Shown piece after piece: positions 9,884-56,660 of a stretch of DNA of 64,000 bases. Origin of the DNA: Anaerolineales bacterium. Its GTDB lineage: Bacteria; Chloroflexota; Anaerolineae; Caldilineales; Caldilineaceae. The first letter of the stretch is position 1, and every line of letters starts with the position of its first letter. The notes below the pieces were generated by a model that did no database searches, was not told where the DNA came from, and saw nothing but the letters and a program-made list of their open reading frames with translations. Both the position numbers and the translations under genes were made by a program. The DNA lies in the NCBI GenBank assembly GCA_034422235.1, contig DAOUJU010000040.1:51922-115921 (forward strand). The letters are read 5' to 3'.

Positions 9884-10915
9884 ATGACCTGTTATCTTGT
9901 GCCCGGCGGTGCCGGCTTCATTGGCAACAACTATATCCGTTTTCTGCTCACCGGCTTTCCTGACACGCGGGTGGTAGTCCTGGACAAGCTGACTTATGCA
10001 GGGCGCCGCGAGAATTTGCAGGATGTTGCGGAGCGCTTCCCGGATCGGTTTGAACTGATTGTCGGGGACATCTGTGATGCAGAACGCGTAACTCAGGTCT
10101 TTCAGCAGGTTCAGCCTGACCGTATCGTGAATTTCGCGGCTGAGTCCCATGTGGACCGCAGTATTATGCAACCGGACGTCTTCGTCCAGACCGATGTACT
10201 GGGTACACACAACTTGCTGCAAGCAGCCCTGGAACAGGGAGTAGAACGATACCACCAGGTCAGTACGGACGAGGTGTATGGGCCCATCCCGGATCCGGAA
10301 CGCAGTCGTGAAACCGATCCGCTGGGTCCGACGAGTCCCTATTCCGCGAGCAAGGCGGGAGGCGACTTGCTGGTTTTGGCCTACTACCACACCTATCAGT
10401 TGCCGGTATCCCTTTCCCGCGGAGCCAACTGTGTGGGTCCATTTCAGTATCCCGAAAAGGCATTGCCGATTTTCACCACCAACGCTCTTCTGGATTTGCC
10501 CTTGCCTGTCTACGGTGATGGCCAACAGAAGCGGGACTACCAATATGTCACGGATCACTGTGCCGGTATCCAGATTGTTTTGGATCATGGCCGCGCTGGT
10601 CAAATCTACAATATCGGGACAGGCTCCGAGATGACGAACCTGGACATGATCCGCATTCTGCTGGATGAGCTGGGTAAACCTCTGTCCCTCATCCAGCATG
10701 TGGAAGATCGACCGGGACATGATCGGCGGTATGGTCTGGACATAGGCAAAATGTTGCAATTGGGGTGGTCGTCCGCCTTCAACTGTGAGGAAAGTATTCG
10801 CCGGGCCGGACGCTGGTACGCGGACAATCGCTGGTGGTGGGAACCGATACGGGCCGGGGAGTTCCAGACGTATTACAACCGTAACTACGGAAACCGCGCT
10901 GTCTTGAAGGAATAA
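9884..10915 (+). CDS. rfbB: dTDP-glucose 4,6-dehydratase
   Basis: 343 aa. GGAGFIGNNYIRFLL (Rossmann fold), YSASKAGGDLLVLAYYHTY (YxxxK catalytic motif), and end-to-end resemblance to RmlB. Confidence 0.92.
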   Translation: MTCYLVPGGAGFIGNNYIRFLLTGFPDTRVVVLDKLTYAGRRENLQDVAERFPDRFELIVGDICDAERVTQVFQQVQPDRIVNFAAESHVDRSIMQPDVFVQTDVLGTHNLLQAALEQGVERYHQVSTDEVYGPIPDPERSRETDPLGPTSPYSASKAGGDLLVLAYYHTYQLPVSLSRGANCVGPFQYPEKALPIFTTNALLDLPLPVYGDGQQKRDYQYVTDHCAGIQIVLDHGRAGQIYNIGTGSEMTNLDMIRILLDELGKPLSLIQHVEDRPGHDRRYGLDIGKMLQLGWSSAFNCEESIRRAGRWYADNRWWWEPIRAGEFQTYYNRNYGNRAVLKE

Positions 10916-46488: not shown

Positions 46489-48249
46489 GTGCTTGCCGTC
46501 ATGATGCGTGCCCATCATAGTCTGTCATTGTTTTCTCCCCGTCGATGGGGCATAGGGATATCTCGGTTAAACCGCAGACTGAAACAACACCGAATACCCA
46601 ATTATGTCCAGATCGATATTGGAGAAAGAGTCATAGAACGCCAATCCAGAGCTGCCTGGTTGACCCCTCTGTTGGGACCACCTCCGCAGTCGCTGGAAGA
46701 CTTGCGGACGGCCTTGCGCGCCGTAGCTGTCGATCCGATTCCAGAAGGCATTGTGCTACGTATCGATAATACGGACCTGACATTGCACAACGCCCAGACC
46801 ATCATTGGGTTCCTGGCGGAATTTCGTCAATTGGACAAAGAGCGACATGCCAGTTCTGGTGCGGCACCCAAACGGATCGTATGTTTCCTGAATCTCTGCA
46901 CAACGGCCAGTTATCTGGTAGCCACAGCTTCCGATCATATTGTCCTGGCTCCCGTCACGTCCTGGGACCTGACAGGACTCAGTCAGCGCAATCTATACCT
47001 GCATCGTATGCTGGACAAGCTGGGACTGGATTTCGAGGTTGTTCGTGCAGGACGCTGGAAGACCGCGCCCAACGCTTTAACAGCGGAATACATGGATCAG
47101 CACGAGCGAAGCCACTTACTGACGGTACTCCAATCTCTGTATGACCAAATCGTAGACCAGATTACCCACGGTCGGGGACTGTCCCACGCCACGGTGCAAG
47201 CGGCACTGGATGAGGGGCCCCTGGTGGCCGAGGAGGCATTAAAACATCAACTTGTGGACGATATCTGTGCCTGGTCTCGACTGCCTGCCCGTCTCTCCCG
47301 TGAACCCTCAGATCAGGAGAAGACCTTGGTCCCCTATACCGAGATCCAGAGGCTTTTGCGGAAGGAATACCGACGCCGACATCCCAAGATGATTGCCGTA
47401 ATCTCGGTCCAGGGCGTTCTCAATATGGGTTCCAATAACGCCAGGTCCAGAGACAGCATGAGCAACCATCGTGACCTGCTGGCAGCGATCCAAACGGCAA
47501 GAGAGAAGAAAGATCGCTTGGCGGGGGTCATTCTCTACGTCGATTCGCCAGGCGGGTCCGCCCTGGCCAGTCATATTGTTCATGATGCCCTGTTGCAGCT
47601 ACGCGACGAAATGACACTGGCCATTTATATGGGAAAAGTAGCAACCAGCGGTGGCTACTACCTGGCTATGGCAGGACAACACGTCATTGCCCAGACGGCT
47701 ACCCTGACCGGCAGTATTGGTGTCTTCTTGGGCAAACCCTTAATCCACCGTCTGCAGGGGAAATTGGGCATCCAGGTCTCGCACCTGCAACTGGGTGCCA
47801 ATGCTGGTATCTTCGATCCGGCCACGCCGTTGTCAACTAACCAGCGTGAGCTCTTTCAACGTCATGTAGATCATGTCTACGCCAATTTCCGGCGAGTGGT
47901 CCAGGCGGGTCGTAACATGGACGGTAGTCGGCTGGATGAACTGGCCGAGGGCCGGGTCTGGACTGGCCAGCAGGCTCTGGAAAGGAATCTGGTAGATGAG
48001 ATCGGTTCCTTTGGCAAAGCAGTAGAATTCATTCGCACACAGGCTGGCATTCCCGCCGACTGTCAGGTACGAGTCAAAGATCTGCAGGCACTGCCCTGGC
48101 TGACCTCTTTGTATCCGGCTATGGCGGGTTCCCAGTTCTGGGGTCGGCTGCTTCCATGGTGGAGCCGATACCTTCCGGAAACAGACAGCACAGGTGACCG
48201 GGATCACCTGTGGATGTTGGATGAGGATCTGGTTGATTGGCCACTTTGA
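46489..48249 (+). CDS. sppA: Signal peptide peptidase SppA, 67K (two-domain) type, S49 family
   Basis: 586 aa. Two ClpP/crotonase-like halves. The second carries VDSPGGSALAS and GKVATSGGYYLA (catalytic Ser region). Confidence 0.85.
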   Translation: MLAVMMRAHHSLSLFSPRRWGIGISRLNRRLKQHRIPNYVQIDIGERVIERQSRAAWLTPLLGPPPQSLEDLRTALRAVAVDPIPEGIVLRIDNTDLTLHNAQTIIGFLAEFRQLDKERHASSGAAPKRIVCFLNLCTTASYLVATASDHIVLAPVTSWDLTGLSQRNLYLHRMLDKLGLDFEVVRAGRWKTAPNALTAEYMDQHERSHLLTVLQSLYDQIVDQITHGRGLSHATVQAALDEGPLVAEEALKHQLVDDICAWSRLPARLSREPSDQEKTLVPYTEIQRLLRKEYRRRHPKMIAVISVQGVLNMGSNNARSRDSMSNHRDLLAAIQTAREKKDRLAGVILYVDSPGGSALASHIVHDALLQLRDEMTLAIYMGKVATSGGYYLAMAGQHVIAQTATLTGSIGVFLGKPLIHRLQGKLGIQVSHLQLGANAGIFDPATPLSTNQRELFQRHVDHVYANFRRVVQAGRNMDGSRLDELAEGRVWTGQQALERNLVDEIGSFGKAVEFIRTQAGIPADCQVRVKDLQALPWLTSLYPAMAGSQFWGRLLPWWSRYLPETDSTGDRDHLWMLDEDLVDWPL

Positions 48250-48298
48250 TGTAATCTGCCACCTGTATATATTCCATCAAGTCAAGAGAGGAAGCCCC

Positions 48299-49534
48299 TT
48301 GCCCCTTTCCCTGCATGAGGTGCGTGGTCAGTTCCCCGCCCTCCAAGAGATCTATCACCAAGGCACCGCCATCTTTTGTGATGGTCCCGGTGGATCCCAG
48401 ACGCCCACTCCAGTCATTATGGCCATGCGGGAATACCTGACCCGGTTCAACGCCAATACGGGTGGCCTGTTTGATACCAGCCAGGCGACACACCGGATTC
48501 AGGAAGAAGCCCACAGCTTGATGGCCGACTTTTTTAACGCTGCACCGCACGAGATCATCTTCGGTGCCAACATGACATCACTGACCTACCAGATCAGCCG
48601 GGCAGTCGGCCAGACTCTGGCACCAGGAGACGAGATTATTCTGTCCCGGCTGGATCATGAAGGCAACGTCGCCCCCTGGTTGCAGATGGCCGCCGAACGC
48701 AACCTGGTAGTACACTGGATTGAACCTAATCTGGCCGATTGCACACTCGATCTGGATCAACTCGAGTCCCTGCTGGGCCGACGCACCAAATTGATTGCCG
48801 TAGGCTATGCCAGCAACTTCAGTGGTACCGTGAATCCCGTTGCCCAAATCACGCAATGGGCCCACAGCGTAGGTGCCCTGGTCTATGTTGATGCGGTCCA
48901 CTTCGCGCCCCACCGCCTTATCGATGTATTAGCCCTGAACTGTGATTTTCTGGTTACCAGCGCCTATAAGCACTTCGGTCCCCACCTCGGCGTATTGTTT
49001 GGCAAGGAACGGCATCTAATTCGACTGCCTGCCTATCAGGTACGGACGGCCGATCGTGACCTCCCAGGCAAGTTCGAGACGGGCACTTCCAATTTCGAAG
49101 GACTGGCCGGAGTGTGCGCTTGCGTGGAATACATTGCCTCCCTAAGTGCAGCAGACCCGAGCATGGCCTTGTCTGCCTCCCGTCGCGAACAGATTGAAAC
49201 GGCCTGGGACGTCATCCGGGCCCATGAAACACAGTTAGCGAACCTGTTCCTGTCAGGCCTCAAGAACATACCAGGCATGCGTCTTTATGGACCTGCCAAT
49301 GTACATGATCGGGTGCCTACTTTCGCGCTGCGCAAGGAGGGCACGACGCCCCGTGAACTTGCGACCCATCTGGCAGACCACAATATTTTTGCCTGGGATG
49401 GCAATTTCTATGCGCTTGAAATCTCCCGGGCTTTGGGAGTCGAGGACAGCGGCGGTGTGTTACGGGTTGGTTTTCTGCACTATAACACGAACGAGGAAGT
49501 CAATACTGTGCTCAATGTTTTGGACATGGCCTAA
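48299..49534 (+). CDS. Aminotransferase class V / cysteine desulfurase-like protein
   Basis: The ORF track start at 48194 overlaps sppA. The in-frame TTG at 48299, preceded by GAGAGGAAG, is more plausible. Sequence has VRGQFPAL, HEGNVAPW, the PLP-Lys region TSAYKHFGPHLG, and a C-terminal VRVGFLHYNT. Confidence 0.82.
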   Translation: MPLSLHEVRGQFPALQEIYHQGTAIFCDGPGGSQTPTPVIMAMREYLTRFNANTGGLFDTSQATHRIQEEAHSLMADFFNAAPHEIIFGANMTSLTYQISRAVGQTLAPGDEIILSRLDHEGNVAPWLQMAAERNLVVHWIEPNLADCTLDLDQLESLLGRRTKLIAVGYASNFSGTVNPVAQITQWAHSVGALVYVDAVHFAPHRLIDVLALNCDFLVTSAYKHFGPHLGVLFGKERHLIRLPAYQVRTADRDLPGKFETGTSNFEGLAGVCACVEYIASLSAADPSMALSASRREQIETAWDVIRAHETQLANLFLSGLKNIPGMRLYGPANVHDRVPTFALRKEGTTPRELATHLADHNIFAWDGNFYALEISRALGVEDSGGVLRVGFLHYNTNEEVNTVLNVLDMA

Positions 49535-49765: not shown

Positions 49766-49887
49766 TAATACGCGCTATGCGGCAGGGAAGAACTGACTAA
49801 CCAGGCAAGATCCTCCCGAATGACTTGCGCCCGTTCGATAGTCTGCCCATAACACACTTATACCCAGCAATGTACAGTACCTATTCC

Positions 49888-51111
49888 TAGTAGTGTGTCT
49901 GTCTTAGATTGATGGGTACAGTTTGCGCAGCTTGATACGCGCCTGGTCGGTGGTGAAGCGCCAGTCCACCGGCGCCCCGTGGGTATTGCGTTCCGTGTAC
50001 CACGCCTTCGTCTCCGCCACCAGGGTCTCCTCGTCCGGGATGCGCCGTTGCAGGCACTGGCGCTGCAGGACACTGTTTTCGATCTCGGCGATATTGAGCC
50101 AGCTGGCGTGCTTGGGGGTGTACACGAAGGTCAGTTTCTGCCGCAGCCGGTGGGCCGTGGCCGGGTTGAAGACATCATACAACACCCCCAGCTTGTGGGT
50201 GTTGAGATTGTCGCAGACCACGGTGATCTGGCGAGCGGTGGGGAAATGCTTGTCCACCAGGTCCTTGAGTACGAGCGCGAAGTCCACGCGCGTGCGGCGC
50301 GCCGTCACCTGCACCGTACGCCAGCCTACGAAAGGCGCCGTAATCATGAACAGATTGCGGGTCCCGTTACGTCGATACTCGTAGTCCTCTCGGGCCCCTT
50401 GGCCCGCGCACGGCGGTAGGGGCTCTCGGACCTGCTGATGCAGAGTCTTGCTGATTTCATCCACACACACCACCGGACGGTTGGGGTCCACCGGACGCTG
50501 ATAGGTGTCCAGCACCTGCTCCATGGCACAGACGAAGTCGCCATCGGGTTCGGTCTTCAGGCACCAGGTCTGCTTCTGCCAAGGCTTGCGTTCGTTTTTT
50601 TCAGTGTCTGGCGCACCGTTTCCCGGGCGATCGAGTCCACCACTGCCAGTGCCACCAGCTGGTCCGCCAGCAACCGCAGGCTCCACTCCTTCCGGCCCTT
50701 CGGCGGCGGCGAACAGGCCAACTCCATCAGCTTGGCTTCCCCCACCCCGTCCAGCCGTCGCGCCCGGCGCGGATGGTCCCTGGGGGCCGTGGCCAAGGCC
50801 CCGGGCAGCCCCTGCTGCGCCCACGCCTGCCGCGCCCGGGCCACCGTCCGCGCACTGATCTCCAGCCGCACCGCGGCCGCCACGTCGGTGTCACCCGGCC
50901 CGGCCGGGCCCTGATCCACCCGCAACAGGATTTGGGCGCGCAGACGTGTGAAAGCCTTCGGCTGGCCCGTCCGCACCACCCGGGCCAAATCCTCCCGTTC
51001 GGCGGTCGTTAGCGTGACGATATACTGTTTGGTGGCCATGAACCTGTTACCTTGTTGCCCGAGGGTCAGGCCCCTTAGTATACCAGACAAGGTAGGGCGG
51101 ACATAATACTA
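49888..51111 (-). mobile_element. IS630-family insertion sequence (copy A), intact, flanked by TA
   Basis: Imperfect terminal IRs: TAGTAGTGTGTCTGTC at 49888 versus the reverse complement of GGCGGACATAATACTA at 51096-51111, about 17/24 matches. TA at both ends. Noticeably GC-richer than the flanks. Confidence 0.75.
49904..51039 (-). CDS. IS630-family DDE transposase, two frames joined by a -1 shift at an A7 run
   Basis: ORFA is 51039-50557 (MATKQYIVTLTTAERE..., HTH). ORFB is 50824-49904 (VCVDE, VVCDNLNTH, WLNIAEIEN = D,D,E). The frames switch at AAAAAAA (T7 on the plus strand, 50595-50601): TLKK / NERKPWQKQ. Confidence 0.8.
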
Positions 51112-52241
51112 AGCGGTTCGCATGGACAAATCGTAAGATAGCTGTTATCCTGTCCGGTACGGTCTGCCACCTGTCATCCTTCGCGGAAATCCTATGCCTG
51201 CCCCCCTGCACGTGAAACTCTCCTCCCGCCAACGCCGGCGCCTGCGCGAGCTGCGCCACGATCCCGGCCTGAAACCCCGCGAACGGGACCGGGTGGAGAT
51301 GTATCTGCTGTCGGCCGACGGGCTGACGGTGCCCCAGCTGGCCCCCCACTTCGGGTATCAGGAGGCCACGTTGCGGCGCTGGATCCGGCAGTGGGAGGCA
51401 GAAGGCCTGAAGGCCATCCGCCACAAGCCCCTGGGGACCGGGCCCGACTGGGCGCGGCGCCAGCAGGTGCGGCGGGCCCTGAACGGGTTGCTGCGCCGGC
51501 AACGGACCTGGACGGCGGCCCAGTTGGCCGAAGCCCTGGCGGAGAAAGGCATCCTCATGCAGCCGCGCACCGTGCGCAAGTACCTGGGTCTCATGGGGGC
51601 CCGGTACCGGCGTACGAAGTACACCCTGCAGCCCAAGCAGGACCCGTCCCGGGTAGCCCAGGCGCGGGAGGCGCTCAAAGAGCTAAAAAAAAGTCCCGCG
51701 ACGGGGAACTCCAGCTCTTTTTCCTGGATGAATGCGGCTTCTCCCTGACATTGCCTCCCACCTATACCTGGTGTCGCCGCGGCCAGCGGCCCCTCGTCCC
51801 CCATGAGAGCCCCCAGGGGCAGCGCGTGAATGTCCTGGCCGCCCTCGCCGCCCCCGGGACGACGCCGGCCACCCCCCTGATCTGGTGGGCCGCCCCCTGG
51901 ACCTGGAAGAGCGAGCATCTCCTTACCTTCCTGCGTCTCACGCTGCCCCCGGGGGACGGGACCCGCCGCGTCGTGGTGCTGGATAATGCGTCCCACCATG
52001 GCAGCCGGGTCATCCGGGACGCCCAGCCGGACCTGAAGAAGCAGGGCATTGAGCTGTGGTATCTGCCCCCTTACGCGCCCGAACTGAACGACATTGAGCG
52101 GCGATTCCGGGACGCCAAGCACCAGGCCCTGCCGGTCCGTACCTACGCGACGGTCCGGCGCCTGACCGCCGCCATCCATACGGGGTTCCGTACCCTACAG
52201 AACCAAATTCTATCTGAACATTCGTCCATGCGAACCGCTTA
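51110..52241 (+). mobile_element. IS630-family insertion sequence (copy B, different sequence from A), intact, flanked by TA
   Basis: A perfect 16-bp IR: AGCGGTTCGCATGGAC at 51112-51127 and its reverse complement at 52224-52239. TA at 51110-51111 and 52240-52241. Confidence 0.85.
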
Positions 52242-52242
52242 G
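51194..52242 (+). CDS. IS630-family DDE transposase, two frames joined by a -1 shift at an A8 run
   Basis: ORFA is 51194-51748 (HTH region). ORFB runs to 52242 (FFLDECGF, VVLDNASHH, ELNDIERRF). The frames switch at A8 (51685-51692). The stop codon TAG uses the flanking TA. Confidence 0.8.
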
Positions 52243-52582
52243 AGGTGATAGGTCAGAGGCATGTCTGATTCTGCTCTTCTTGCCATCCTGCCAGCCTCAT
52301 TCGCATAAGTATTGTGACTATTCCGGCAAGGTACCCGAAGTGTAAGCTATACTTCATGATGTCTCTGTCGGCACACCCCGGATCCCTTCACCCCTGAGAA
52401 GAGATAGGGGCCATGGGTATTCCTGTCATCCTGAGTATGGTCCCACAAAGCTGTTCCCCCCAATAAGGTACGGGCCTATTTCCCGTCATAGTAGCTGCCC
52501 CCCGGAAAATGAGTAAGGGGGAGTGCAACCAGCAAAAGGAGAGGATTGCAGCTAGACAGAAGAATCTGGATGGAGAGGATGA

Positions 52583-53845
52583 ATGATCACACTGGTGGAA
52601 GCTCTGAACTACCGCTGTCTGCGCTATGTGCAAAGACCGCTGGCCCCATTTCATGTATTGGTCGGACCCAATGCTTCGGGCAAAACAACTTTTTTGGATG
52701 TCATAGGTTTTTTGCAGGACCTAGTATCCACCGGGCTGGATGAGGCTTGGTCGGAACGTAGCCACAACCCAGTCGATCTTTTCTTTCGGCAACAGTGCGG
52801 CCCCTTGGAACTGGCCGTCGAAGCCCAGATTCCAGATGAGCTACGTCAATTAACATCGAAGTGGGACAAGGTTCGGTATGAAGTTTCCCTTGACATTGAA
52901 CCCGAGCGGCAACAGTGCGCGTTCCAAGGAGAACGACTGTTGCTCAAGCAGACTGAGACGTGGGTCCCCCCCCAGCGTTCCCTTTTTCCCACAAAACCCA
53001 AGAGCCCGGATTCAGTGTTGACCAATATCCGGCGAAAAAACAACAAGATTGTGATTCACAAGGTGCAGAACGGAAACGACAATTTCTATAGCGAGACAGA
53101 GGAAGGTTCGGGTTGGGGTCGAACCCGATCATTTCGGCTTGGTTCGGATAAGTCAGCCCTGGGCAACCTGCCCGCGGACCATACTTCCTTTCCCGTGGCG
53201 ACTTGGTTTCGTGAATACCTAACCGCAGGAGTCCAGCGATTTACACTCAACAGTCTCATGATCAAGCCTCCTAGTCCTCCGACCCGGACTGTCGGATTCT
53301 GGCCCGACGGGTCAAATTTGCCCTGGGTTGTGGATCAGATGGAGCAAAAAAATCCCGAACGGTACCAAAGATGGATCCACCATCTACAGACGGCTCTGCC
53401 GGATCTGGTGAACATCACCACCTTCGAACGCCCGGAGGATCGACATCGCTACATGATCTATGAATATACGGGCGGTTTCAGGGTGCCTTCCTGGATGGTG
53501 TCCGATGGCACACTTCGGCTTACAGCCTTGACTTTGCTGGCCTATTTGACCGAGTCTTCATCACATCCCAGTATTTACCTGATCGAGGAACCCGAGAACG
53601 GCATCCATCCAAAAGCTGTGACCGCAGCATATGATTCCCTTTCCTCGGTTTATGAATCGCAGATATTACTGGCTACCCATTCTCCGCTCGTGTTGAACGA
53701 GGCACACATGGACCATGTGTTGTGCTTTGCCCTCAATGATGATGGTTCCACTGATATCGTTTCGGGTTCCGAACATCCCAAGCTGCAACAATGGCAAGAC
53801 ACCGCTGATTTGGGCACATTGCTCGCCGCGGGGGTCTTGGGATGA
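52583..53845 (+). CDS. ABC/SMC-like (AAA_21/AAA_15-type) ATPase
   Basis: 420 aa. Walker A GPNASGKTT, signature-like SDGTLRL, Walker B IYLIEEPENGIHP, H-loop LLATHSP. A long insert lies between Walker A and the signature, as in OLD/AbiL/PARIS-type ATPases. GGAGAGGA lies upstream of the ATG. Confidence 0.85.
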   Translation: MITLVEALNYRCLRYVQRPLAPFHVLVGPNASGKTTFLDVIGFLQDLVSTGLDEAWSERSHNPVDLFFRQQCGPLELAVEAQIPDELRQLTSKWDKVRYEVSLDIEPERQQCAFQGERLLLKQTETWVPPQRSLFPTKPKSPDSVLTNIRRKNNKIVIHKVQNGNDNFYSETEEGSGWGRTRSFRLGSDKSALGNLPADHTSFPVATWFREYLTAGVQRFTLNSLMIKPPSPPTRTVGFWPDGSNLPWVVDQMEQKNPERYQRWIHHLQTALPDLVNITTFERPEDRHRYMIYEYTGGFRVPSWMVSDGTLRLTALTLLAYLTESSSHPSIYLIEEPENGIHPKAVTAAYDSLSSVYESQILLATHSPLVLNEAHMDHVLCFALNDDGSTDIVSGSEHPKLQQWQDTADLGTLLAAGVLG

Positions 53846-54474
53846 ACCGCAAGGACCTTGTGGTGCTCGTTGCCGACAAAGATATGGAGCAGGCGCTGAA
53901 GGGGTTGTTGGTCAGGCCAGAAGCCTTGAACATTCGAGCCATCAGGGCAGATATATTTGTTCATCCACAGCACGATCCGGCCTGCGCGCAACATGGTGTG
54001 GCGTTTCTGTCCCGCTTTGCGGAACAGTATCACTATGGTCTTCTCATGTTTGACCACGAAGGAAGCGGCAGAGAGCCAATACCGATCCAGGAGTTGCAAG
54101 CTAAACTGAACCACAAGTTCCAGGATTCACCCTGGACAGACCGCGCCCGGGTTATCATACTGTCGCCTGAACTTGAGACTTGGGTATGGGCCGATTCGCC
54201 GCATGTTGACGATGTCATTGGTTGGAAGGGCAAGACGCCGACACTTCGTCAATGGCTGATCGCCCAAGGCTGGCTACAACAGGGACAGGCTAAGCCGGAT
54301 CGACCCAAAGAAGCCTTTGAGGCAGCTTTACGTGAGACCCGCACACCGCGCAGTTCATCCTTGTATCAGCAGATAGCGAATAGTGTTTCCCTGCGCCGGT
54401 GCCAAGATACCTCATTTCTGGAATTCCAGAACATTCTGAGGAATTGGTTTGGGAATTATATATCTTGTATATAA
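53842..54474 (+). CDS. Small partner protein, possibly Toprim-like (DUF4276/RloB-like), divergent
   Basis: 210 aa. ATGA overlap with the ATPase stop. Three strand-end acidic motifs: LVVLVADKDME, LLMFDHEGSG, ILSPELETWVWAD. The length and an LE(T/A)W-type motif resemble DUF4276/RloB partners of AAA_21 ATPases. Assignment is from memory of family patterns only. Confidence 0.5.
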   Translation: MNRKDLVVLVADKDMEQALKGLLVRPEALNIRAIRADIFVHPQHDPACAQHGVAFLSRFAEQYHYGLLMFDHEGSGREPIPIQELQAKLNHKFQDSPWTDRARVIILSPELETWVWADSPHVDDVIGWKGKTPTLRQWLIAQGWLQQGQAKPDRPKEAFEAALRETRTPRSSSLYQQIANSVSLRRCQDTSFLEFQNILRNWFGNYISCI

Positions 54475-54777
54475 ATCCCATTGGTTCCCGTAGAGAATAT
54501 CAGCCAATGCAGGGAATTGCGGGATGGGAGATAACGGCCGTAGCTTCCGCCAACTGGACCAGGTCCCATGATATGGCTCTGCATACTGGCACAGGCACTG
54601 CAGAGTGCGGAGTTAGGCGGCGACTCACGCAAGCTTGTCTTACAGGCGTAGTGTCCGAGCACATCCACACAGGAAAGTCGTGAGTGCTTGAGCCTGGCTT
54701 CCATGCTGTGACATCTAGGCCAGAATCAGCCCGGATCGTGGGTTTGTCTTTCACACCTGAAAATGTACCTGTATCCA

Positions 54778-54788
54778 GGGTTCATACC
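54778..54788. repeat. Target-site duplication (left copy), GGGTTCATACC
   Basis: An identical 11-mer at 56379-56389 directly flanks the other IR of the IS4-like element. Confidence 0.8.
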
Positions 54789-56378
54789 TTGACAGGTGTA
54801 TTTCTGCCGAGGCTCTGTGGGTAGTGCCGCATGTATGTAGTCAGATTTAACGATGGGCGGTACTGATGTATCCCGAGAGCGACGCGCGGGGCGGCAGCGG
54901 GGCCCTGACCGCGCGGGGTCCGGCCGCGGGCCGTCAGGGCGGTGCCGAGTTGGTCCCCCGCGGGCAGGGGTAGCCCTGCGACGGCCGGACCCCGGGCGCC
55001 GCAGGGAGAGGGAGAGGCAGAGGCGTCAGGCGCCGCGAGGTGACAGACAGCGCAGACCGGCCGTCTTGTCGGGCCCCGGCGTGGGTGACAGCCACACGCC
55101 GGTCCAGAGGCGACCGCGGGCCAGACCGTCGCGCAAGAGGATCAGGCCCTGGGAGAAGAGGCTGAGAGGACGCGGTCGTCGGGGGATTACCGGGTCGGGC
55201 GGTGGTCGACGCAGATGACGGGGCGCCACCCCCAAAGTGAGGGCATCCTCCTGGCGGGTGGCGTAGGCCAGGGCCAGCAGACAGGCCACGGCGATCACCC
55301 GCAGGTGGCGGGCCGTACGCGCGGGGTCCAGGCGCCGGGTCCGCGGCCAGCGCAGACCGCGGGTTTTCCACCCCCGGCAGTGCGGCTCAATCCCGTGGCG
55401 CCAGGCGTACAGGGAAGGATCCGTCTTCTGTGCCGGCGTGTTCGTGAGGAGGATCCAGGGTTTCGCACCGCCGGGATCATGCACCGCGACCAGGGTGCAC
55501 GGCCGGGGGTGGTCACGAAAGGCCTCACCCTCGCCTACCCCGTAGGTGCCTGGTCCCTGCCGCAGGTCTGTGACCGGCACCCGGGCCACGGCCCCCGCGG
55601 GCCGAAAGGTGAGGTGGGGCTGATAGCGCACGACGGGATGCCCGCCCAGATCCACGATCTGTTGCCACAGGTCGGGGCTGCTCAAGCCCTCGTCACAGAG
55701 GACATGAACGCGGGTCCCCGGCGGCACCGCCGGCGCCAGTTGCCGCCGCAGGCGCCGGAAGTGGGACATCCAGGGGTCCTGGGCCTGCGCCGGCACCACA
55801 TGCCAGGCCACCGGGAGCGCGTGGTGCCGGTAAAGCACACTAACCGTGAGGACCACCCATTCGTCCCGGCGGTGCGTCGGGTCCAGGGCCAACACCAGGT
55901 GGGAACACCGGCCTACCCACAGGCCGAGGATCCAGGTCAACCACGGGGGAAACAGCGGGGCCACCGCCCACTCCGTGTCCGGCCCCCACGAATCAATCCG
56001 GTCGCTATCGTCGTAGGTCAACTCCCGCCACTGACGACGAAGCGTGTGGCACTGGCCGTACCGTCCCCGCGACGCCGCCACCGTGTCCAGACAGACATTC
56101 CCGCCCCAGATTGTGCCCTCCACGAACAGCGCCAGGGCCTCCAGGACCCGGCCTGGCCATGACAGCCGTTTGGCCAACAGGGAGACCAGGGGATAGAATG
56201 TCGGACGTGGAAGCATGGCTACACGCAGAGAGTATGAGGTGGTGATGCACCTTTATCTTACCTGCGGGCCATGCTTTTTCGTCACCTGCGCCTGCACCTC
56301 CCCCTGGGTTTCCCCGCCAGGCTTCTCCTGCCCATGGGGGAACATATGTTCTGTCGTCATCAAAAATACACTTGTCAA
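54789..56378 (-). mobile_element. IS4-superfamily-like insertion sequence (about 1.59 kb), intact, strongly GC-rich
   Basis: Terminal IRs: TTGACAGGTGTATTT (54789-54803) and AAATACACTTGTCAA (56364-56378), 14/15 matches, extending imperfectly inward. Flanked by an 11-bp direct repeat. Confidence 0.8.
55026..56216 (-). CDS. DDE transposase (IS4/IS701-like)
   Basis: 396 aa. Candidate D,D,E residues: LVLALDPTH, VHVLCDEG, YAWRHGIEPHCRGWKTRG (Y-x2-R-x3-E-x6-K-like). Confidence 0.75.
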   Translation of the reverse strand: MLPRPTFYPLVSLLAKRLSWPGRVLEALALFVEGTIWGGNVCLDTVAASRGRYGQCHTLRRQWRELTYDDSDRIDSWGPDTEWAVAPLFPPWLTWILGLWVGRCSHLVLALDPTHRRDEWVVLTVSVLYRHHALPVAWHVVPAQAQDPWMSHFRRLRRQLAPAVPPGTRVHVLCDEGLSSPDLWQQIVDLGGHPVVRYQPHLTFRPAGAVARVPVTDLRQGPGTYGVGEGEAFRDHPRPCTLVAVHDPGGAKPWILLTNTPAQKTDPSLYAWRHGIEPHCRGWKTRGLRWPRTRRLDPARTARHLRVIAVACLLALAYATRQEDALTLGVAPRHLRRPPPDPVIPRRPRPLSLFSQGLILLRDGLARGRLWTGVWLSPTPGPDKTAGLRCLSPRGA

Positions 56379-56660
56379 GGGTTCATACCCGGAGGTGAGG
56401 GCGACGAGAGCTTTACCTACAGACTTAACGGATTTCAGCATTGTGCAGTCCAGCAAACGGTCGTATCCACGGGTGTCGATATGGACTGTCAACCCACCAT
56501 AGCGGCTCAGTTTGCTGAGAGGGACATTCCTCATCTGTCTCCAAGCCAGAGAGGAATCGGGAACTTTCCGCCAGGATTGATCCAGCGATAGTAATGGGAG
56601 CGCGATGTACAACAGGTGTACGGAGTCAGTTACTTTCCAGTATTGATGAATCTGTGCCAA
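56253..56660 (-). pseudogene. Small hypothetical ORF whose 3-prime end is interrupted by the IS4-like insertion
   Basis: The reading frame enters the IS at the TSD (..TSGYEP). Removing the IS restores ..SGYEPWIQVHFQV-stop at about 54750, a roughly 106-aa product. No recognisable domain, so coding status is itself uncertain. Confidence 0.3.
56379..56389. repeat. Target-site duplication (right copy), GGGTTCATACC
   Basis: See 54778-54788. Confidence 0.8.

Follow-up and report, generated by a model that had tools for sequence, protein, structure and literature searches.

A pair of overlapping genes at positions 52583-54474 was analysed in a 64,000-nucleotide stretch of Anaerolineales DNA (assembly GCA_034422235.1, contig DAOUJU010000040.1, positions 51,922 to 115,921), the whole of which is referred to as the window. 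The pair codes for an ABC-type ATPase and a small Toprim-like protein which, judged by profile matches, almost certainly belong to the MAD3 and MAD4 families of the methylation-associated defence system (MADS), an antiphage system. The locus is not a MADS system, as it holds MAD3 and MAD4 only. It is read here, with a probability of about 0.72, as an intact stand-alone ('orphan') MAD3-MAD4 copy working as a defence cassette that consists of a sensor ATPase and a Toprim nuclease; the odds that such an orphan pair defends its host autonomously are about even. Names for the class exist already (NCBIfam MAD3/MAD4; PADLOC HEC-01), its fold relationships have been published, and the locus is an ordinary instance of it. 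The pair has the following features.

52583 to 53845, plus strand: MAD3-family ABC-type ATPase, 420 aa (NCBIfam, Pfam, PADLOC)
53842 to 54474, plus strand: MAD4-family small Toprim-like protein, 210 aa (NCBIfam and fold model; at the edge of Pfam DUF4276)
53842 to 53845, plus strand: ATGA stop/start overlap of the ATPase and MAD4-like genes (from the sequence)
52243 to 52582, plus strand: non-coding leader of the pair, with a Shine-Dalgarno-like GATGGAGAGG 4-13 nt before the ATG

Family assignment of the two proteins

The 420-aa protein was matched over its full length by the NCBIfam model NF047739 (antiphage_MADS3, MAD3; 493 bits, cut-off 420) and the 210-aa protein, likewise over its full length, by NF047734 (antiphage_MADS4, MAD4; 228.9 bits, cut-off 160). 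Because both proteins pass these equivalog cut-offs, the suggestion of an earlier note on this DNA that the partner might represent an uncharacterised effector family is out of date. Hidden Markov model (HMM) searches of Pfam and PADLOC, which that note had proposed, were also run. In Pfam the ATPase matched AAA_21 (5e-28) and also AAA_15 and SMC_N; in PADLOC it matched HEC-01A (PDLC04182; 8e-44, residues 5-415 on profile positions 7-396 of 406) and mad3 (2.4e-30), and the partner matched mad4 (1.2e-5) and, weakly and partially, HEC-01B (1.1e-3 and 1.3e-3).

The two open reading frames (ORFs), their ATGA overlap and all ATPase and acidic motifs listed in the earlier note were found again in the sequence. 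The ATPase carries a complete ABC/SMC-type set: GPNASGKTT (Walker A, G28-T36, with K34), SDGTLRL (signature or C-loop, S307-L313), IYLIEEPENGIHP (Walker B with its Glu, I331-E336) and LLATHSP (H-loop, H366). Residues G28-K34, D308-G309, E335-E336 and H366 were invariant across 44 homologues. The roughly 270 aa between Walker A and signature, earlier taken for an insert of no recognisable fold, fall inside the AAA_21 model, which spans residues 23-372 as a single stretch, and the region corresponds to the variable insert regions of the HEC ATPases (bioRxiv 10.1101/2024.01.29.577857). When the ATPase-family profile was run against PDB sequences, PtuA (6e-13), class 1 OLD (6p74, 5.5e-10), GajA (3e-4) and retron-associated PtuA proteins were recovered. 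Foldseek searches with the weak AlphaFold model of the ATPase, which was used qualitatively only, consistently gave ABC ATPases (PtuA, SMC and Rad50 heads, AriA 8ux9_B and GajA).

On sequence grounds both ORFs are genuine genes and not chance ORFs, since hundreds of homologue clusters are 60-71% identical to them over their full length. In a word-indexed search, 545 relatives of the 210-aa protein were found at E <= 1e-3, the top matches being 60-71% identical over the full length, and relatives of the 420-aa protein ran into thousands. An exhaustive profile search of 1.84 billion representatives, with clusters formed at 50% identity, returned 1,604 MAD4-like clusters at E <= 1e-3, of which 535 also passed E <= 1e-30; stand-alone proteins of about 205-215 aa made up nearly all of them. 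A rare fusion was seen in the family representative P0383 (1,203 aa), which carries the MAD4-like domain at residues 2-205 followed by a large unknown C-terminal region. Both window ORFs are intact and their products hold all family-invariant residues. The ATGA overlap would imply translational coupling of the two genes.

The placement of the small protein in the DUF4276 class found indirect support through its relatives; the window protein itself matched no Pfam family at E <= 1, neither DUF4276 nor Toprim. When 27 diverse relatives were scanned singly, PF14103 (DUF4276) was matched by four of them (best 5e-6) and was the only Pfam family matched by more than three. For Mad4 of Pseudomonas aeruginosa, HHpred gave DUF4276 at 99.78% (bioRxiv 10.1101/2023.03.30.534895); DUF4276 and RloB have been assigned to the Toprim superfamily, with Mad4 named as a DUF4276 homologue (PMC12065111). 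Profiles of the MAD4-like family run against PDB sequences gave noise only.

An AlphaFold2 model of the 210-aa protein, built from 45 homologues, was confident, with a mean pLDDT score (predicted local distance difference test) of 89.6 and a predicted template modelling (pTM) score of 0.85. It shows a four-stranded alpha/beta core (residues 4-107), with strand/helix units at 4-10/13-23, 36-40/44-57 and 63-71/82-94 and a last strand at 102-107, followed by a C-terminal helical region (112-203). The top five PDB matches in Foldseek (6nk8 chains A and B, 6njv, 6njw and 6njx) were all C-terminal catalytic regions of class 2 OLD proteins, found with probability 1.00, template modelling (TM) scores of 0.46-0.53 and about 216-227 aligned columns. 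After these five the E-value rose from 3.5e-3 to 0.08, leaving class 2 OLD as the sole significant PDB matches. Among viral models (BFVD), the best named full-length match was an RloB-like protein (TM 0.47). A Toprim-like fold is thus supported by the predicted structure. Taken with the Pfam matches of the ATPase, it upholds the earlier view of the pair as one of the OLD, PARIS or RloB-DUF4276 kind, with an AAA_21/AAA_15 ATPase and, coupled to it, a small Toprim-like protein.

The acidic motifs of the small protein are VVLVADKDME, LLMFDHEGSG and ILSPELETWVWAD. Down to 32% identity, residues D45, D71, G76, P109, E110, W114, W116, K151, P152, P155, K156, W202 and F203 were invariant and E112 nearly so; D12, K13 and E16 were at least 90% conserved among closer relatives. 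Conserved acidic residues comprise D12, E16, D71, E73, E110 and E112, and the protein therefore keeps an acidic site, though one without the canonical Toprim residues.

Occurrence of the pair without the MADS core

MADS was described as an eight-gene operon in P. aeruginosa SMC4386, coding for a helix-turn-helix (HTH) protein (mad1), an N6-methyltransferase (mad2), an AbiEii/AAA_21 ATPase (mad3), a DUF4276-like protein (mad4), a specificity subunit (mad5), a kinase (mad6), a DptG-like protein (mad7) and a HerA-like protein (mad8) (Maestri et al., bioRxiv 10.1101/2023.03.30.534895). In the same study, mad2-4 and mad6-8 were each required for defence in P. aeruginosa, a mad5 deletion was obtained only in combination with loss of mad2 or mad3, and MAD6, MAD7 and MAD8 were made mandatory in the authors' MacSyFinder model of the system (bioRxiv 10.1101/2023.03.30.534895). 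The requirement for mad3 and mad4 supplies the experimental link to phage defence that had been claimed for these families. A place for MAD3, possibly together with MAD4, in the restriction arm of MADS is consistent with these data, because the viability of mad5 deletions depends on mad2 or mad3.

A complete MADS operon was identified on the Piscinibacter gummiphilus plasmid NZ_CP136338.1 (locus L046, 11688-28754), where each of MAD1 to MAD8 exceeds its NCBIfam cut-off; most of these genes are listed as 'hypothetical protein' in the table of the plasmid record. On the same NCBIfam models its MAD3 and MAD4 scored 547.5 and 233.2 bits, values comparable with the 493 and 228.9 bits of the window pair, and the window proteins are only 33% (MAD3) and 31% (MAD4) identical to them. 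MAD1, 2, 5, 6, 7 and 8 of L046 were used as tblastn queries against the whole 64-kb window and 44 related loci. No match to any of the six was obtained in the window, and MAD1, MAD5, MAD7 and MAD8 had no match in the window or in the 44 loci. The MAD2- and MAD6-like signals were limited to generic ones, from Type I HsdM (L003 and L034) and from Ser/Thr kinase domains (L012 and L022). In a plasmid collection only two distant matches were found, one being the L046 operon, and a DNA-level search for a MADS operon in Escherichia coli genomes gave no match. The window pair belongs to a clade that is MADS-less in every locus sampled, which shows that MAD3-MAD4 is a separable unit.

The 44 related loci were drawn from more than ten phyla. 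Relatives were present in 32 species-representative genomes (Chloroflexota, Planctomycetota, Acidobacteriota, Pseudomonadota, Nitrospinota, Poribacteria, Bipolaricaulota and others); the closest relatives came from further contigs, and one locus (L001) contributed only the 3' end of the ATPase gene. Homologues of the small protein are linked to the ATPase gene as had been predicted: in all 44 related loci with a MAD4-like gene, the ATPase gene lies directly upstream of it. An NTGA overlap was present in 36 of 46 loci, the L046 MADS operon included, and in most of the others the junction fell within a few bases, making the overlap a trait of the family. Beyond the pair itself, all-against-all clustering of neighbouring ORFs yielded no gene common to more than four of 34 loci. 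The 108 nearest neighbours fell into 131 Pfam families, of which the commonest, Methylase_S (Type I S subunit), occurred three times.

Relatives 65-71% identical to the pair sit as clean two-gene insertions without insertion sequences (ISs). They were found between UbiA and LigA genes (L002, L038 and L039), between two MTTB genes (L036 and L037), between Fic_N and ThiF genes (L040) and between COX3 and VapBC genes (L041-L044). A GATGGAG Shine-Dalgarno-like motif, located within 52561-52582 in the window, was also present before the ATPase start in L002, L003, L036, L040 and L041, which are independent insertions. L036 and L040, which have different flanking genes, are alike over 47 nt of upstream sequence (91%), a sign that a short leader may move together with the cassette. 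A sigma-70 promoter and terminator scan around the pair gave nothing over shuffled expectation, with no convincing promoter in the leader. Conserved cassette ends, flanking direct or inverted repeats and att-like sites were looked for across the independent insertions and none were found. Phage GenBank records contained no relatives; neither did IMG/VR viral contigs, which were scanned by a single peptide pattern and hence with limited sensitivity. Most likely the cassette is self-contained and horizontally mobile, occurring solo among housekeeping genes or as a plug-in within MADS, Type I restriction-modification (R-M) or Hma (helicase-methylase-ATPase) loci.

In a minority of relatives the pair is nested in Type I R-M operons (L003, L005 and L034), and in L004 it follows a D12-class methyltransferase gene. 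In L003 (1-20621) the order is HsdM-Ymh-HsdS-pair-DUF433/DUF5615-HsdR, and the operon is flanked by CBASS-like genes (SMODS and Cap17-like_N), QueC and an AddAB-like helicase-nuclease, together forming a dense defence island. In L012 (5289-13914), from an Anaerolinea metagenome-assembled genome (MAG), the pair lies between genes for a 1126-aa DUF1156 protein and a 1107-aa DUF499 protein, an Hma-type locus and hence the context in which PADLOC HEC-01 was defined. In L036 (1-5063) and L037 (1-4822) the pair is preceded, about 2.7 kb upstream and across an MTTB gene, by a Zorya-like four-gene block whose products are a 690-aa protein, a 298-aa protein, an EH_Signature protein and a protein with SNF2 and Mrr_cat domains.

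In the window, the pair is flanked by three IS elements, both IS630-family elements upstream and the IS4-family element downstream.

49860 to 51106 (approximate), minus strand: IS630-family element 1; transposase in two overlapping frames
51109 to 52242, plus strand: IS630-family element 2; 33-nt terminal inverted repeats, TA at both flanks, transposase in two overlapping frames
54787 to 56380, minus strand: IS4-family element; 17-nt terminal inverted repeats

The inverted repeats of IS630 element 2 were located at 51109-51141 and 52210-52242 and those of the IS4-like element at 54787-54803 and 56364-56380. The ends of IS630 element 1 were looked for and not found, and its coordinates are therefore approximate. 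It follows from the IS ends that the non-IS DNA carrying the pair measures only about 2.5 kb (52243-54786). The two IS630 elements are arranged head-to-head with about 2 bp between them and show no relationship at the DNA level. Their transposases (49904-51090, minus strand; 51194-52242, plus strand) are each split into an N-terminal HTH part and a C-terminal DDE part in overlapping frames, by either programmed frameshifting or decay. Of the earlier statement that the pair is the only cargo between intact ISs, the three IS flanks were confirmed; both IS630 transposases are split over two frames, so that these elements may or may not be intact. A composite transposon, which that statement wrongly suggested, was rejected, because the ISs on the two sides are of different families, with one copy of each in the window. 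With a GC content of 63-72% versus about 55% in the surrounding genome, the three ISs look like recent arrivals from a high-GC donor, and the pair, at about 52.5%, appears compositionally near its host.

Among the scanned neighbours of the pair in the window no methyltransferase, S-subunit or HTH gene family was detected, in line with the earlier remark that no modification enzyme or HTH gene accompanies it. On the far side of the ISs lie housekeeping genes, for SppA and a cysteine-desulfurase-like protein and for an AlkZ-like glycosylase and a BNR protein. Ordinary metabolic genes account for the largest ORFs in the rest of the window, and no ORF of the window is longer than 771 aa. The cysteine-desulfurase-like ORF (48194-49534, GTG start) overlaps the end of the SppA ORF (46489-48249) by 56 nt in the mechanical ORF call; its true start probably lies further downstream, since the NCBIfam match begins at residue 41. 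Scans of the 64-kb window for tRNA genes and Rfam families found nothing.

Proposed function and alternative explanations

In the proposed mechanism, the ATPase and the MAD4-like protein would form a complex, with the ATPase acting as sensor and regulator and its large insert between Walker A and signature serving as a surface for sensing or oligomerisation. The DUF4276-related Toprim protein would be the effector, a metal-dependent nuclease that cuts nucleic acid by two-metal catalysis. In class 2 OLD, the site consists of E400 and E404 after strand 1, D455 and D457 (DxD), T506 and E508 in the first helix of the helical domain, and K562 (PMC6755086). By analogy, the metal ligands in the window protein are proposed to be D12/E16, D71/E73 and E110/E112, together with a lysine of the helical domain, K151 or K156. 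Activation of the pair by an invading element would then lead to restriction of the invader or to abortion of the infection, as in OLD, Gabija and PARIS. The three unrelated ISs would have landed later beside the roughly 2.5-kb segment that holds the pair.

Several points weigh against reading the orphan pair as a defence cassette. In MADS the pair depends on six further genes for defence, which speaks against taking its autonomy for granted. The sole HEC-01 representative tested as a stand-alone system gave no protection against an E. coli phage panel (bioRxiv 10.1101/2024.01.29.577857). The canonical Toprim Glu and DxD are absent; in their place stand D12, within the ADKD sequence that had already been noted as replacing the first-strand Glu by Asp, and D71-H72-E73 (D-x-E), of which D71 is invariant and E73 varies in distant relatives. 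The proposed equivalence of D12/E16, D71/E73, E110/E112 and K151 or K156 to the OLD ligands was derived from motif order and predicted secondary structure. The AlphaFold model of the ATPase is poor (pLDDT 59.5). In six of the 32 species-representative relatives (L004, L013, L014, L021, L031 and L035; gene at about 10001-10616 in each), the MAD4-like gene contains in-frame stops or frameshifts, which suggests frequent decay or assembly error; the latter is conceivable because several of these loci sit in long-read MAGs.

A further point concerns enrichment in defence islands, which the earlier note had made a test of its proposal and had named the lack of as a refutation. Most relatives lie outside recognisable defence islands, mainly among housekeeping genes, so that, taken literally, the outcome went largely against the proposal. 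It was not counted as a refutation here, because the minority of pairs nested in Type I R-M, Hma and MADS loci represents the very context that nominated the class as a defence system. [quoted passage not shown]

A stronger form of the defence reading can be held only tentatively, at clearly less than even odds. In this form the cassette would work entirely by itself, as an abortive-infection or restriction system responding to a trigger of its own, and would have been captured independently by MADS, Type I R-M and Hma loci as a plug-in nuclease effector or guard. If it were true, 65-71% protein identity across more than ten phyla and clean insertions among unrelated housekeeping genes, with no integrase, repeats or conserved ends, would point to an unrecognised route by which small defence cassettes spread.

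The best surviving alternative, although unlikely, is that the pair is inert alone and acts as an accessory effector or 'anti-anti-restriction' guard of another defence system, methylation-based or otherwise, whose genes lie elsewhere in the genome. It would accord with the fact that in MADS not only mad3 and mad4 are necessary but likewise mad2 and mad6-8, with the absence of defence by HEC-01 alone, and with the recurrent embedding of the pair in Type I R-M and Hma loci. Moreover, since mad5 deletion also needed deletion of mad2 or mad3, MAD3 activity would be linked to methylation status. On the other hand, R-M genes are missing within 3 kb or more of most relatives, the pair has no co-varying partner, the window, which covers only 64 kb of the genome, shows no R-M gene, and OLD, PARIS and Gabija, which also combine an ABC ATPase with a Toprim domain, are self-sufficient according to the literature.

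Considerably less probable is a reading in which the pair has no defensive role towards phages or plasmids and is instead a selfish cassette of the addiction or toxin-antitoxin type, or an accessory to DNA repair. The patchy, horizontally spread occurrence among housekeeping genes without defence-island enrichment, the Pfam label of AAA_21 ('putative AbiEii toxin, Type IV TA'), the negative HEC-01 assay and the location of some relatives next to LigA, helicase or SbcC-like genes would all fit such a role. Yet the same families are genetically required for phage defence in MADS, and the nearest relatives by structure and by sequence are without exception defence nucleases and ATPases. In addition, nesting within R-M-type operons is far commoner than our rough chance estimate, with three S-subunit genes among 108 neighbours against an estimated background of well under 0.1% of genes.

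Least probable of all, if by little, is a decaying relic of a larger MADS or Type I R-M operon that lost its methyltransferase, specificity, kinase and helicase genes through the three IS insertions: the ISs do abut the 2.5-kb segment, MAD3 and MAD4 were originally defined inside an eight-gene operon, and in some relatives the pair stands within an R-M, Hma or MADS operon, but tblastn found no MAD1, 2, 5, 6, 7 or 8 in the 64-kb window, the genes past the ISs are housekeeping genes, both ORFs are intact with all invariant residues kept, and the 44 related loci lack MADS partners, the nearest relatives being IS-free two-gene insertions between housekeeping genes.

If the orphan MAD3-MAD4 pair proved active alone, it would represent a compact, widely distributed defence module formed by an ABC ATPase together with a Toprim protein, and it would identify the part of MADS that does the cutting. 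Automated annotation would label the pair 'MADS' and thereby imply a methylation-based system that is absent here; because none of the related loci sampled has the MADS core beside the pair, the names MADS3 and MADS4 overstate such loci. Some modest interest is added by a clade that lacks this core at all the loci sampled and by a cassette unusually conserved across phyla, cleanly inserted and bearing no recognisable mobility signature.

Comparison with known systems

Class 2 OLD proteins (Burkholderia pseudomallei and Xanthomonas campestris; 6NK8, 6NJV; PMC6755086) share with the small protein the Toprim core and helical region and a comparable order of acidic motifs, and with the pair as a whole the association with an ABC ATPase. 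They differ in being single polypeptides, as GajA is, whereas the window carries separate ATPase and nuclease-like genes joined by a 4-bp overlap. Sequence identity to the 210-aa protein is 11-14%, Glu being replaced by Asp and DxD by DxE in the window. Class 2 OLD genes adjoin a UvrD/PcrA-like helicase gene, a neighbour that the window pair does not have.

PARIS (AriA, an ABC ATPase, and AriB, a DUF4435 Toprim protein; PMC11464382) is likewise a split, two-gene ATPase and Toprim system, and AriA (8ux9_B) was among the fold matches of the ATPase. The partner in the window is DUF4276-like and gave no DUF4435 or AriB match in Pfam or PADLOC. The PADLOC 'AriA' match of the ATPase (2.6e-30) was to a 304-position model at the same coordinates as Pfam AAA_21. 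The searches of phage records and viral contigs turned up no carriage by phages or satellites. RloA/RloB- and AbiL-type pairs also combine an AAA_21 ATPase with a small Toprim-superfamily protein and are sometimes nested in hsd operons, comparable to L003, L005 and L034. The RloB-like structural match of the 210-aa protein and an AbiLi HMM match of the ATPase (7.5e-20), covering part of the profile only, point to this likeness, but the partner has no RloB or AbiLii HMM match.

The window partner matches the HEC-01B models of PADLOC only weakly and partially, and the window pair is not embedded in anything. What is shared with HEC-01 is the two-gene architecture and the HEC-01A type of ABC ATPase; the window partner is adjacent, co-directional and Toprim-like, with a putative OLD-type metal site. 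With respect to MADS, MAD1, 2, 5, 6, 7 and 8 are all absent from the window, whereas the gene order, gene sizes and 4-bp overlap of the pair match those of the L046 operon and both proteins lie above the equivalog cut-offs.

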